The position numbers were made by a program, and so were the translations under genes. Under the pieces are notes generated by a model. The model was not told the origin of the DNA. It did no database searches and saw only the letters and a program-made list of their open reading frames with translations. DNA of 64,000 nt from Escherichia phage vB_ESM-pEJ01: sequence record OP114734.1. The stretch is one strand, 5' to 3'. Below, piece after piece: positions 59,471 to 64,000 of the stretch (positions are counted from its first letter, which is position 1; every line of letters starts with the position of its first letter).

Positions 59471-59656
59471 TCAGAAATATGCAATATAGTTTGCCAGTCC
59501 TACAGAGTCATCATTCGGCATTGCTTTTACCGCCAGTTCAAACCCTTCTTCAACTTTCTGTTTAGCGGATTCTTCGTTATAACCCCAGATGACCAGAATA
59601 GCTACTACGTTTTCTTTGCTTACTGCTTTCAGTGCTTTAGTGATGCGACGTGCCAT
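59471..59656 (-). CDS. hypothetical protein (61 aa)
   Basis: Promoter-leader cassette upstream. Confidence 0.45.
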   Translation of the reverse strand: MARRITKALKAVSKENVVAILVIWGYNEESAKQKVEEGFELAVKAMPNDDSVGLANYIAYF

Positions 59657-59932: not shown

Positions 59933-60151
59933 TTATTTATATCGCTTTCTCTCGCGACGTTTTTGATCTTCTTCCTTGATAGAGTTAAACGCATCAAAAA
60001 GACACATGACACTGATAATGAACATAACCGTATTTTCTACGATATCCCACGGCTTCGCATCAGTACAGATCCCCCAAACGGTAAGAAATGCAAATAGTGC
60101 AGAAGAGATCACAAGCATGATACTTGCTAAGATATAAAAAGTCATTTTCAT
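59933..60151 (-). CDS. small membrane protein (72 aa)
   Basis: Hydrophobic helices; basic C-terminus. Confidence 0.45.
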   Translation of the reverse strand: MKMTFYILASIMLVISSALFAFLTVWGICTDAKPWDIVENTVMFIISVMCLFDAFNSIKEEDQKRRERKRYK

Positions 60152-60342
60152 GGTTTTACCTCAATTCTTCGATATTCATCACACATCCACGCAGTAAGCA
60201 AGAATCCCAGCACATAAGCAACAAAATACGTTAATGCTTCTTCTGGTTTCGTGCTATGTATCATCAGTAAACCAGCGAGAACGGTCTTAACAATTACATT
60301 TAAAATAACTAGCCACGCAAATAATTTCATCGTTTGCCCCAT
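60148..60342 (-). CDS. small membrane protein (64 aa)
   Basis: Hydrophobic helices. Confidence 0.45.
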   Translation of the reverse strand: MGQTMKLFAWLVILNVIVKTVLAGLLMIHSTKPEEALTYFVAYVLGFLLTAWMCDEYRRIEVKP

Positions 60343-60566
60343 TTCGGTCGAGTCTTTTCAAACTTATACATTCCGTAACAATCTCGAATCATCCACGTAA
60401 CAAGAGCACCAGTCAACACAGACAATACACAGAAGAAGTAAAACGGTCCGGTTGCATTATCAACATGAGCAAGCCATGTAAAGAAAACACATGCAAGGAA
60501 CGTGAAGAACATCATAAAGCACAAGAAAGCAAAATATTTTATACTACTCATAGCGCCACCATACAA
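60327..60566 (-). CDS. small membrane protein (79 aa)
   Basis: Hydrophobic helices. Confidence 0.45.
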   Translation of the reverse strand: MYGGAMSSIKYFAFLCFMMFFTFLACVFFTWLAHVDNATGPFYFFCVLSVLTGALVTWMIRDCYGMYKFEKTRPKWGKR

Positions 60567-60654
60567 CAGATCATAAGAAACCCCAACGCAATAAGAATTG
60601 CGTCAAATTTAGTGAACTCAGGTCCACCTATCAACATCATTCGTTCTATTTCGT

Positions 60655-60897
60655 TCATAGCGTACAAAGCCATTTAAAAGCACCACATAAAGCGAGCAGA
60701 ATACTAGGTATAAACGAGATCATAACAAGTTTGCAAAAATCATCTAAGGTAACGCCGGAATAGCTACCTACTGTAACAACACCGATCATCAGACACAGAA
60801 AGAAAACAAATGCAACCAGAAACAAAGTATTGCTAAACAGTTTAGTGATCATTAGACACCCCACGACGATCAATTTCAAAAACTTTTTTACCATCAA
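60655..60897 (-). CDS. small membrane protein (start uncertain)
   Basis: Hydrophobic helices; overlaps upstream ORF by 56 nt. Confidence 0.4.
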   Translation of the reverse strand: MMVKKFLKLIVVGCLMITKLFSNTLFLVAFVFFLCLMIGVVTVGSYSGVTLDDFCKLVMISFIPSILLALCGAFKWLCTL

Positions 60898-61045
60898 CGA
60901 AGCATGTCACAACTGCCTCGTTGACTTCCGCAAATTGTTGTGTTACCCACTTAAGGTCAGAGCGAAACAATGTTCTATTAATAACAAATGTTTTACCGCT
61001 CTTATCCTTACCCATAAATTTTGCTTTAACCATATCCAATTCCAT
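60842..61045 (-). CDS. possible Dmd-like antitoxin (67 aa)
   Basis: MELDMVKAKFMG...QQFAEVNEAVVTCFVDGKKVFEIDRRG resembles my recollection of T4 Dmd (not verifiable here); not in the T4 dmd position. Confidence 0.35.
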   Translation of the reverse strand: MELDMVKAKFMGKDKSGKTFVINRTLFRSDLKWVTQQFAEVNEAVVTCFVDGKKVFEIDRRGVSNDH

Positions 61046-61054
61046 ATTATCACC

Positions 61055-61213
61055 TTATTTGCTAATCGCTAAACCCAATCCGAAGAGAGCACCCGATGCT
61101 ACAGTATACCCGAAAGTTTCAAATGCAGTAAAGATATCTAAGCCACCAGCTAACAGAGTTGCAGTAAACAGAGTACCAGCTACGAACATAAAAGTTTTAC
61201 CGATGAATTTCAT
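61055..61213 (-). CDS. small membrane protein (52 aa), not in ORF track
   Basis: MKFIGKTFMFVAGTLFTATLLAGGLDIFTAFETFGYTVASGALFGLGLAISK; AGGAGAATCAAAATG initiation region and promoter directly upstream. Confidence 0.5.
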   Translation of the reverse strand: MKFIGKTFMFVAGTLFTATLLAGGLDIFTAFETFGYTVASGALFGLGLAISK

Positions 61214-61244
61214 TTTGATTCTCCTTTCGTTTGTTTGTGGGGGT

Positions 61245-61273
61245 ATCTTACTACCCCCGTTTCATGTTGTCAA
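61245..61273 (-). promoter_or_regulatory. sigma70-type early promoter (-35 TTGACA rc 61268-61273; -10 TAAGAT; IR gggggta/taccccc)
   Basis: 17-nt spacer; IR 61240-61259. Confidence 0.45.
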
Positions 61274-61279
61274 CTATTT

Positions 61280-61654
61280 TTAAGAATATTTTACTTCGTC
61301 TACAATGTCTTTCATGACATTGATTTCCATTCCGGTCAGAACACGTTGGAACATGTGCTGCACATACGCTTTCAGGTATTCATTTGATGGCTTACTATCG
61401 AAAGTCTTTTTAGTGTAGTAGTCATCACCGAAAGCTACTGTAATTACATTTTCGTCGTCGCTCCAAGCGATATAAGCAAATTTGCCGTTATCCCAGAAGC
61501 GAGCACTAATTGCTACTTTTGTTGAATCGAATCCTACTTCGCTGTGAGATTCAAGAACTACTTGTGTGCCAGTTTCTTTATGAATGTAGTAGCGGGATAC
61601 TAAGTCAAAGTTACGGGTGTAGTGACATTCGAATTTATCTTTAAACATCATCAT
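61280..61654 (-). CDS. hypothetical protein (124 aa)
   Basis: Promoter-leader cassette upstream. Confidence 0.5.
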   Translation of the reverse strand: MMMFKDKFECHYTRNFDLVSRYYIHKETGTQVVLESHSEVGFDSTKVAISARFWDNGKFAYIAWSDDENVITVAFGDDYYTKKTFDSKPSNEYLKAYVQHMFQRVLTGMEINVMKDIVDEVKYS

Positions 61655-61692
61655 TTTTGATTCTCCTAAGTGTGTTTCGTTTCGATGTGTGC

Positions 61693-61721
61693 ATTATGCT
61701 ATAGTCGTTTATGGTTGTCAA
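61693..61721 (-). promoter_or_regulatory. sigma70-type early promoter (-35 TTGACA rc 61716-61721; -10 CATAAT)
   Basis: 17-nt spacer; recurring cassette. Confidence 0.5.
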
Positions 61722-61738
61722 CACATAAAAACAAAAAA

Positions 61739-61757
61739 CCCCGAAAAATTTTCGGGG
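61739..61757 (-). terminator. rho-independent terminator 3' of the 2H phosphoesterase gene
   Basis: Hairpin ccccgaaaa/ttttcgggg followed on minus transcript by UUUUUUGUUUUU. Confidence 0.5.
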
Positions 61758-61764
61758 TATAAAA

Positions 61765-62235
61765 TTACAGTTTGGACGTCCACTCCAGGTCTAGATCTTC
61801 GACATACTCATGAGATCGGACAATCTCTAAATCGAACTCTAGGTCAGTGCCAAATTTACGCGCACCAACATCATAAGAAAGCGTGATATGCGGTACATAT
61901 TCAGGATAATCCCACGTCGCGCCTAAAGCAGTGCCTATATCGTGTCTGAATTGCATGTAGTCGCTTTCAAATGCCAACACAAGCGCATTAGTACCGGATT
62001 GAGTTTCAAACACTTTAAGATGGCATAGAGAGCCTAAGAACTTTTCACCCTCTTCTGGTATAAACGGAACATAGACACGAGAATATAAGATAGTGCTATG
62101 CAGTTTATCACGAGGAACGGCATTAGGCAGATCGTAGAACTCCTGCAATTTTTCAATGCGGTCTAGTGTATCCTCAGTGAATTTAACCGCCGCATATGTA
62201 CCTTTAACGGATTCTCTAAACGGGGTCATAATCAA
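61765..62235 (-). CDS. 2H phosphoesterase, Acb1-like (T4 57B position; candidate anti-CBASS cyclic-nucleotide phosphodiesterase)
   Basis: Two H-x-T/S motifs (HSTILYS and HITLSYD) about 90 aa apart; about 155 aa; adjacent to 57A-like gene. Confidence 0.55.
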   Translation of the reverse strand: MIMTPFRESVKGTYAAVKFTEDTLDRIEKLQEFYDLPNAVPRDKLHSTILYSRVYVPFIPEEGEKFLGSLCHLKVFETQSGTNALVLAFESDYMQFRHDIGTALGATWDYPEYVPHITLSYDVGARKFGTDLEFDLEIVRSHEYVEDLDLEWTSKL

Positions 62236-62558
62236 GCCTCCGTGATCAGTTCTACTTCCTCTTCTGCGTCTTCCTCTTCTGCGTCTTCCTCTTCTGCGTC
62301 TTCCTCTTCTGCGTCTTCCTCTTCTGCGTCTTCCGCTGCTTCGTCTTTAGGGAGAAGTGCTTTCACTTCTTCGACAATAGCATCAAGGGAAACAGTGCCG
62401 TTTTCGTCTGGCTGAATACCAAGAATGCGTACCAGTTCCATCAATACACGCTCACGATCTTTCAGTTGGCCTTCTAAGAATGCGGCCTTTTCTTGAGTGT
62501 CAAACAGACGTACTTTCAGGACATTAATCATTTGTTCATGCTGATTGGACATATTCAC
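62232..62558 (-). CDS. 57A: gp57A-like tail-fibre assembly chaperone with acidic repeat tail
   Basis: N-terminal coiled-coil; position upstream of gene 1 as in T4; C-terminal (DAEEE)n encoded by 15-nt tandem repeat. Confidence 0.55.
   Translation of the reverse strand: MNMSNQHEQMINVLKVRLFDTQEKAAFLEGQLKDRERVLMELVRILGIQPDENGTVSLDAIVEEVKALLPKDEAAEDAEEEDAEEEDAEEEDAEEEDAEEEVELITEA
62261..62335 (-). repeat. 15-nt tandem repeat cttctgcgtcttcct x about 5 (codes EDAEE repeats)
   Basis: Direct tandem copies at 62261, 62276, 62291, 62306, 62321. Confidence 0.85.
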
Positions 62559-62584
62559 ATCTCCTACTTGTTGATAACTTTTTA

Positions 62585-63241
62585 TTAAATGTTCGCGAGA
62601 ATCGCGCTTTCAAATTCTTCTAATGTACCATTATTTATGATGATGGTTTCACCGTCAATAGGCAAAATTCCTTTTTCGGTGGAGTGAGTCGATACAATAC
62701 CAGTATCACGCTGAATATGCAACACCTTAGCACCCATAGCACGCATGAGAGCAATTTCAATAGGCTGACGCACATCAACCACTACAAAATACCCTTCTTC
62801 ATTTTTGCGCTTCATAAACTCATCCACAAAGAGATTACACCAATAAAGCGGATTGATCAAGTTAACCATTATATCAGTACCGAGAGTGGTTAACATGAGA
62901 CGAATAGACCAGACGTTATTATGTTTTTCGCCGATCTCATTAACGACCTTGTAAATCTCAGCCAGACGATCACAAGTAAAGGAACTACCGCCATACTTCG
63001 AATCTAGCATAAGCAGACACTGAATAAACCACTTATGCGCGGTATAGGTATCAATACCTAGATCGGCTTCTCTGTCACGCCCTAACCCGTCAAAGTCAAG
63101 ATAAGTCAGACCTAAGTCTGGTTGACATTCGCATAAGATTTCTTTGATCGGTGCTGCCAGTTGATAACTATGTCCATCAATGATTAACGCGGCAGTGTCT
63201 TTTCCTACTCGCTTTTTACCACAAAGTGCAATCAATTTCAT
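62585..63241 (-). CDS. 1: deoxynucleoside monophosphate kinase gp1
   Basis: MKLIALCGKKRVGKDT P-loop; YQLAAPIK, TTLGTDIMVN, VVVDVRQ resemble remembered T4 gp1. Confidence 0.88.
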   Translation of the reverse strand: MKLIALCGKKRVGKDTAALIIDGHSYQLAAPIKEILCECQPDLGLTYLDFDGLGRDREADLGIDTYTAHKWFIQCLLMLDSKYGGSSFTCDRLAEIYKVVNEIGEKHNNVWSIRLMLTTLGTDIMVNLINPLYWCNLFVDEFMKRKNEEGYFVVVDVRQPIEIALMRAMGAKVLHIQRDTGIVSTHSTEKGILPIDGETIIINNGTLEEFESAILANI

Positions 63242-63256
63242 TATATAAGCCTCTTA

Positions 63257-63847
63257 TTACTTTCTAAAAGCAGGGTGCATAGCTTTAATACCTTCCACCC
63301 GCTGACGATCCGCCGCCTGAATTGCTGGGCGAGGAACGATCAGTTGACCATCACGTTCAATGCTCATTGTTTTAAAGGGAAGAATTGCAGTACACACCAG
63401 AGATTCATGCATATCATCGGTGTATGTTAACTCAAGTTCCCCCAATTGTGAACACCAACAACCATAAAAGTTAAAAGTGCACACAATGTTACGTCGTTCG
63501 TTGTCCATCATGTGAACTTGAACGGCTTCCGGCATTGAATCCTTCCACGCAGTGGAGTTACCGTTATTGTAGTCTACTATAGAAAGCATCCATGTGTAAA
63601 GGTTTAGATAGCTTTCCAAATGCTCATCGACAATAAACCGGACTACCAACGGGTCAAACTCCACATGACTAGACGGATAATCAGCGACCGCCAAACCATA
63701 TTGACCAGCAACTTGCTTAGTCGGTGGAATGGTTATAGCAGGAAGTGTAACACCTTGAGCATTTAAAGTAAAGCCTTTTGTTAGTTGTCCATCTGGAATA
63801 TTGATCTGCCAGTTGCTAGGGTTAGCATAGTTAAAGAGATTAGACAT
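63257..63847 (-). CDS. 3: probable tail completion/sheath stabiliser protein (T4 gp3 position)
   Basis: 196-aa ORF immediately upstream of gene 1 as gene 3 in T4; sequence not verified. Confidence 0.5.
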   Translation of the reverse strand: MSNLFNYANPSNWQINIPDGQLTKGFTLNAQGVTLPAITIPPTKQVAGQYGLAVADYPSSHVEFDPLVVRFIVDEHLESYLNLYTWMLSIVDYNNGNSTAWKDSMPEAVQVHMMDNERRNIVCTFNFYGCWCSQLGELELTYTDDMHESLVCTAILPFKTMSIERDGQLIVPRPAIQAADRQRVEGIKAMHPAFRK

Positions 63848-64000
63848 TACTGATTCCTCAAATGAAAATATTTATTAACAATTGTCGCTTTGCGACGTGC
63901 CTACGGCACTGACTACTTTTTAACCGAAACAAATTTTTATTATTCTAAAGATCTTTCTTCGTTTTGGTTATGTTTTAACCAATAACTATATTTTTATACA

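Follow-up and report, generated by a model that had tools for sequence, protein, structure and literature searches.

Organization of the locus and start codon of the gene

We analysed a 64,000-nt stretch of DNA from Escherichia phage vB_ESM-pEJ01 (OP114734.1), hereafter called the window. A megablast search with positions 61000-64000 of the window retrieved 74 phage records, among which the best relatives, 98-99% identical, were Escherichia phage kaaroe, GoldenSnicker, Krischvirus RB49, JSE and GEC-3S. Judged by these nucleotide matches, the phage is a Krischvirus (RB49-like, T4-type, Straboviridae). The gene studied here lies beside 57A and gene 1, at the place of T4 gene 57B, as a sequence-only reading of the window made by a model had already recognized, and the order 3 - 1 - 57A - 57B is that of T4 and RB49 (Table 1). 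In the RB49 record (AY343333), where these genes follow each other on one strand, it is annotated as '57B, gp57B conserved hypothetical protein'; in T4, the start of 57B overlaps the end of 57A. The match of the upstream neighbour to Pfam GP57 (26.8 bits) is slightly below the 27-bit cut-off, and its assignment as 57A is based on the evidence given in Table 1.

Table 1. Genes, motifs and signals around the putative acb1 gene, in coordinates of the window
Feature	Position	Strand	Basis or remark
Terminator-like hairpin ACCCCGAAAA/TTTTTCGGGGT, then TTTTTTGTTTT	61738..61758	-	Terminator scan; directly after the acb1 TAA
Putative acb1 (gene 57B ortholog), 154 aa + stop codon	61765..62229	-	ORF, start/stop context, Pfam, PDB, AlphaFold2
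C-terminal lid, residues 148-154 (LEWTSKL), with putative stacking W150	61768..61788	-	Aligns to T4 lid 145-152 and W147
Second catalytic motif, H114-I115-T116 (codons CAT ATC ACG)	61882..61890	-	Equivalent to T4 H113/T115
First catalytic motif, H44-S45-T46 (codons CAT AGC ACT)	62092..62100	-	Equivalent to T4 H44/T46
GGAGG ribosome-binding site of acb1	62237..62241	-	Inside the last 57A codons; read from the sequence
Gene 57A, tail-fibre assembly chaperone	62232..62552	-	PHROG 1002, E 6e-26; aligned to RB49/T4/FBB1 57A
Gene 1, dNMP kinase	62585..63241	-	PF21448, E 4.5e-68; RB49 annotation
Gene 3, tail completion protein (gp3/gp19-type tail protein)	63257-63847		Synteny

The open reading frame list gives the gene as a 156-aa ORF opening at a TTG (61765..62235, minus strand), and this was the length retained by the sequence-only reading, which had given no strand. 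On the coding strand, the junction between 57A and acb1 reads ...ACG GAG GCT TGA TT ATG ACC CCG..., with the ATG (62229-62227) placed 7 nt past the Shine-Dalgarno motif GGAGG and 2 nt past the 57A stop codon TGA (62234-62232). The TTG at 62235 overlaps this stop codon. We consider that the ATG at 62229 is most likely the true start of acb1, because of the Shine-Dalgarno spacing and because the orthologs are deposited as proteins of 154 aa; the length has thus to be corrected from 156 to 154 aa. The TTG, which is the mechanical longest start, was ruled out on the same two grounds. Indeed, 154 aa is the deposited length of RB49 gp57B, of the vB_EcoM_G2494 ortholog and of UYE95424.1, the vB_ESM-pEJ01 protein itself, which is identical in sequence and labelled 'hypothetical protein' in GenBank. 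No gene was accepted among the plus-strand ORFs that overlap this one (e.g. 61689-61886, 65 aa), since homology and coding signal are both confined to the minus strand.

Expression signals around the gene

The layout of the junction predicts that acb1 is translationally coupled to 57A. At the other end of the gene, the terminator-like hairpin (minus strand, 61758-61738) is read as ACCCCGAAAATTTTTCGGGGT, then TTTTTTGTTTT, and the record of phage G2494 lists the same hairpin as an ARNOLD terminator. The acb1 gene is the last cistron of a putative 3-1-57A-57B transcription unit, whose end is marked by this predicted intrinsic terminator. A search for the T4-type late promoter TATAAATA found none in the 61-64 kb region and two in the whole window, which is below chance expectation.

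A near-consensus sigma-70-type promoter was found at 61693-61721 on the minus strand (TTGACA, a 17-nt spacer and CATAAT; 11 of 12 matches). It is placed past the acb1 terminator and ahead of a gene encoding a 124-aa protein, and presumably serves this next gene. Because this promoter comes directly after the terminator, the genes downstream of acb1 seem to be transcribed early and as a unit of their own.

We also observed that 57A contains a 15-bp tandem repeat (62255-62347, 6.2 copies), which is translated as five consecutive acidic AEEED units and lengthens gp57A by 20 aa in comparison to RB49 (106 vs 86 aa). All 30 Krischvirus records among the matches listed span 441 nt of the 501-nt query, and are thus without the 60 nt of the repeat. 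Either the C-terminal tail of the chaperone has undergone a strain-specific, in-frame expansion of the repeat, or the expansion is an assembly artefact.

The protein matches the Acb1 family

The protein matches the Pfam family Acb1 (PF23474) over profile positions 1-143 of 144, with 174.4 bits for a cut-off of 27 and an E value of 1.4e-51. When the PDB was searched with phmmer, the sole solved structures matched by sequence were those of the Acb1 protein of phage FBB1 (7T26/7T27; E 1.5e-43, residues 10-153). In pairwise comparisons, identity is 48% with T4 57B, 51% with FBB1 Acb1 and 99% with RB49 gp57B. From 5.8 billion proteins searched we obtained 64 homologs; PF23474 is present in every one of them, and some bear the UniRef name 'Anti-CBASS protein Acb1'. 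A copy with at least 99% protein identity is encoded in 52 phage records.

We then compared the gene with its closest orthologs at the nucleotide level. It differs from that of RB49 at 7 of 465 nucleotides, and six of the seven changed codons are synonymous, the exception being S152T; from G2494 it differs at 11 nucleotides, with nine of the eleven changed codons synonymous and two not. Such a pattern (6:1 and 9:2 in favour of synonymous changes) fits with purifying selection acting on a gene that is functional. Since the match to Pfam Acb1 reaches 174 bits and the changes are mostly synonymous, the ORF is not due to chance.

Catalytic and substrate-binding residues and predicted fold

In T4 Acb1, the HxT/HxT catalytic tetrad consists of H44, T46, H113 and T115, and the aromatic residues Y12, W74, F107 and W147 stack on the bases of the ligand (Hobbs et al. 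2022, PMC9117128). E141 touches the adenine N6, and residues 145-152 form a C-terminal lid (Hobbs et al. 2022, PMC9117128); the contact of this glutamate with N6 accounts for the adenosine requirement of the enzyme. The lid was reported to be needed for catalysis (Doherty et al. 2025, bioRxiv 10.1101/2025.08.21.671373). Comparison with the T4 sequence established that the residue numbering used by Hobbs et al. is that of T4.

Both motifs put forward by the sequence-only reading, HSTILYS and HITLSYD, are present in the translation; they contain H44-S-T46 and H114-I-T116, and both are strictly of the HxT form. Alignment to T4 Acb1, which had been proposed as a check, gave the 48% identity mentioned above, and the catalytic and substrate-binding residues are all accounted for: Y12 corresponds to Y12 of T4, H44/T46 to H44/T46, H114/T116 to H113/T115, E144 to E141 and W150 to W147. 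At the two remaining stacking positions, W74 of T4 is replaced by F74 and F107 by Y108. Both are swaps between aromatic residues and both are also found in the FBB1 enzyme, which was crystallized with bound cGAMP. Residues 148-154 align to the lids of T4 and FBB1, a feature of membership in the family.

Conservation was examined in a family alignment of 62 homologs. The four catalytic residues H44, T46, H114 and T116 are invariant (62 of 62), and Y12 is kept in all homologs except one (61/62). Position 74 is occupied by F in 41 of the 62 sequences and by W in the other 21, while position 108 accommodates F, Y, H or W. At position 144 a glutamate is found in 56/62 homologs, and at position 150 a tryptophan in 47/62.

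A model of the protein was then computed from the family alignment with AlphaFold2 (mean pLDDT 91.5, pTM 0.84). Low confidence is limited to residues 1-5 and 151-154, and in the last four residues this is as expected of a flexible lid. When the model was compared with the PDB by Foldseek, the top match was 7T26 (E 2e-16, TM of 0.97 by target length, rmsd 0.9 Å, 52% identity), followed by 7T27 (TM of 0.93 by target length). The next matches, with a TM of about 0.7 and 16-18% identity, were those of a Burkholderia phage BCSR5 phosphodiesterase (9Q2Y/9Q2G). The predicted model thus shows the compact 2H fold of 7T26/7T27, with about 150 aa and a U-shaped beta-sheet pocket.

Acb1 and the label 'RNA ligase'

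The protein also matches PHROG 755 (E 1.2e-54), which is named 'RNA ligase', a label shared by many phage records. Taken at its word, this label would make the protein a LigT-type 2'-5' RNA ligase or a 2',3'-cyclic phosphodiesterase for RNA/tRNA repair. Acb1 and LigT indeed belong to one 2H superfamily, sharing its fold and the HxT/S dyad chemistry, and E. coli LigT structures are distant Foldseek matches of our model (E ~4e-4). However, the LigT models of Pfam and NCBIfam stay below their thresholds, with 19.3 bits for PF13563 (cut-off 27), 14.0 bits for PF02834 (cut-off 23.3) and 11.6 bits for the LigT equivalog TIGR02258 (cut-off 65.7). The LigT structures 5LDI, 5LDM and 4QAK superpose on the model with a TM around 0.5 (0.46-0.58), an rmsd of 4.5-7.7 Å and 10-13% identity, a likeness at the superfamily level only. 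In addition, LigT is a larger protein (~170-180 aa) without the C-terminal Trp lid, with ~11% identity to pEJ01 Acb1, whereas the Acb1-specific ligand-binding residues Y12, E144 and the W150 lid are present here. As for the name of PHROG 755, it is older than the 2022 characterization of T4 57B, and T4 57B itself is still labelled 'RNA ligase' in NC_000866. With the LigT models so far below threshold, we regard the label as a superfamily-level misnomer, and a LigT or RNA ligase identity was rejected as having almost no probability. A LigT-type protein devoid of Acb1 substrate residues was also the outcome that the sequence-only reading had named as contrary to its proposal; what we found is the reverse, sub-threshold LigT models together with the Acb1 residues.

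The claim of an Acb1-like 2H phosphoesterase is therefore borne out by the Pfam match, the FBB1 match, the superposition of the folds and the functional residues, all of which agree. On the basis of its sequence and modelled structure, we conclude that the gene is very probably the RB49-type ortholog of T4 Acb1 (gp57B), a compact and metal-independent 2H phosphoesterase.

Comparison with known Acb1 proteins

The closest relatives are the Krischvirus orthologs. RB49 gp57B (AAQ15381.1) is identical at 153 of 154 positions and G2494 QBO63089.1 at 152 of 154; both have the same length and position, after 57A in RB49, and the same downstream terminator. The only differences are at residue 152, which is S in the pEJ01 protein instead of T, and, for G2494, at residue 129, where pEJ01 has D instead of N. 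The name given in these records is 'hypothetical protein', with or without 'conserved', or 'RNA ligase', and not Acb1.

Among the matches, two versions are shorter. In phage Cognac (MZ504877.1), the acb1 equivalent (217-680) has lost 1 nt from a homopolymer of T, at about codon 64 of the gene in the window, and the record gives two ORFs in its place, one of 64 and one of 82 aa; the version of phage vB_Eco_TB34 has 143 aa. The explanation is either that homopolymers were misread in sequencing or that some Krischviruses have naturally lost Acb1.

FBB1 Acb1, known from the structures 7T26 (apo) and 7T27 (with 3'3'-cGAMP), shares the HxT/HxT tetrad, the F74/Y108 variants, the glutamate and the lid tryptophan. 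The gene order dNMP kinase - 57A-like gene - acb1 is also the same, although the phage belongs to another genus, Roskildevirus, and infects Erwinia. T4 Acb1 (gp57B, NP_049750.1) is the founding member of PF23474, and the catalytic and ligand positions are conserved between the two proteins or replaced conservatively by aromatic residues. In comparison to both T4 and FBB1, pEJ01 Acb1 carries two inserted residues in the last of the predicted beta-strands, within a segment aligned around 132-133; one further inserted residue, near position 81, distinguishes it from T4 and is common to FBB1. These insertions, like the differing downstream neighbourhood, touch no residue known to matter.

Both the gene and its family are already known: it is the catalogued 57B/Acb1 of RB49-type phages and a member of a curated Pfam family. 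The finding is an ordinary one, because the gene is the RB49-type copy of a well-described Acb1. Its practical value lies in the annotation, since the product called 'hypothetical protein' in GenBank and 'RNA ligase' in PHROGs-derived annotation should be named anti-CBASS protein Acb1; beyond this better product name it has little general importance.

Proposed mechanism and substrate range

The activity that characterizes the Acb1 family is a metal-independent cleavage of 3'3'-cGAMP, cUA, cAAA and cAAG, 3' of adenosine, by which cGG and cA4 are left intact. T4 Acb1 and nine further homologs were tested by Hobbs et al. 2022 (PMC9117128), and all ten cleave both 3'3'-cGAMP and cAAA. The lysate screen of the same study (Hobbs et al. 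2022, PMC9117128) took in vB_EcoM-G2494 ('RB49'), the phage whose protein shares 152 of 154 residues with that of pEJ01. In T4, deletion of acb1 causes a plating defect of more than 300-fold on a CBASS host. In the library of papers searched, no text names Acb1 together with RB49 or Krischvirus.

By homology with the T4 and FBB1 enzymes, the pEJ01 protein would act as follows. After infection, the host CBASS cyclase (CD-NTase) would make cyclic di- or trinucleotides such as 3'3'-cGAMP, cUA, cAAA and cAAG. Acb1 would bind the ring of those signals that hold at least one adenosine in its U-shaped beta-sheet pocket, where Y12, F74, Y108 and W150 would stack on the bases, E144 would read the adenine N6 and the C-terminal lid would shut over the ligand. 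With the H44/T46 and H114/T116 tetrad, the 2'-OH of the adenosine would then attack the 3'-5' phosphodiester of the strained ring, giving through a 2',3'-cyclic phosphate intermediate, and without metal, a linear product with a 3'-phosphate. The CBASS effector would stay inactive and abortive infection would be avoided.

What can be seen in this gene directly is its sequence, the conservation of its residues, its synteny, the mark of purifying selection and, as a prediction, its fold; what homology strongly predicts is the enzymatic activity of an Acb1 and, with it, the substrates on which the protein would act and the protection from CBASS that it would give in vivo. RB49-type coliphages carry an intact and conserved Acb1, and because of this they are expected to resist CBASS signalling with adenine-containing cyclic di- or trinucleotides.

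Few viral 2H phosphodiesterases are as promiscuous as T4 Acb1, which sets off the Panoptes decoy system when it cleaves 2'3'-c-di-AMP (Doherty et al. 2025, bioRxiv 10.1101/2025.08.21.671373). By analogy with the T4 enzyme, this liability probably applies to pEJ01 Acb1 too; by the same promiscuity, RB49-type coliphages may be vulnerable to Panoptes and other systems that rely on decoy signals.

A true Acb1 could nevertheless have a substrate range shifted from that of T4, for example one that spares 2'3'-c-di-AMP, so that Panoptes is avoided, or one that prefers trinucleotides. The core of 2H phosphodiesterases governs their specificity, substrate and product profiles can differ among structurally close members, and a related phage phosphodiesterase leaves 2'3'-c-di-AMP intact and escapes Panoptes (Doherty et al. 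2025, bioRxiv 10.1101/2025.08.21.671373). Moreover, pEJ01 Acb1 is only 48% identical to T4 Acb1, has F74/Y108 for W74/F107 and carries the 2-residue insertion around 132-133. However, F74 and Y108 are also the residues of FBB1 Acb1, for which binding and cleavage of 3'3'-cGAMP were seen in the crystal, and F predominates at position 74 of the family (41/62). The ten homologs tested by Hobbs et al. all cleaved cGAMP as well as cAAA, and none of the binding-pocket residues named in the literature is altered in character. The remark of the sequence-only reading that substrate range varies is a reasonable one, but nothing in the sequence points to a changed range. We therefore consider a shifted range very unlikely. 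To the same slight degree only would we credit the Krischvirus lineage of Acb1 with a profile that differs from T4 in an immunologically meaningful manner, e.g. evading Panoptes while defeating CBASS.

Genes downstream of acb1

In T4, the gene that follows 57B is ipI, an anti-defence gene (anti-GmrSD). In pEJ01, by contrast, acb1 is followed by an RB49ORF125c-type gene, a 52-aa ORF and dmd. The first one (61280-61654, minus strand) encodes the 124-aa protein mentioned above, which matches PHROG 15253 and has a weak Gp30.7-like match; the 52-aa ORF (61055-61213, minus strand) is hydrophobic and lies between this gene and dmd. The dmd gene itself (60842-61045, minus strand; PF17587, E 7.8e-15), about 0.7 kb downstream of acb1, encodes an antitoxin against the RnlA/LsoA toxins. 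This suggests that the stretch from acb1 to dmd is a lineage-specific anti-defence islet, in which the two uncharacterized genes between them could be candidates.

Further along the same strand, positions 59933-60897 hold a run of at least five consecutive and partly overlapping small ORFs (41-80 aa), strongly hydrophobic and membrane-like, which correspond to RB49ORF118c-122c; the four that were scanned gave no significant Pfam match. In the same early-gene block, a 61-aa ORF (59471-59656, minus strand) encodes a conserved phage protein of unknown function, with a full-length match to Pfam DUF7421 (E 4.6e-39).
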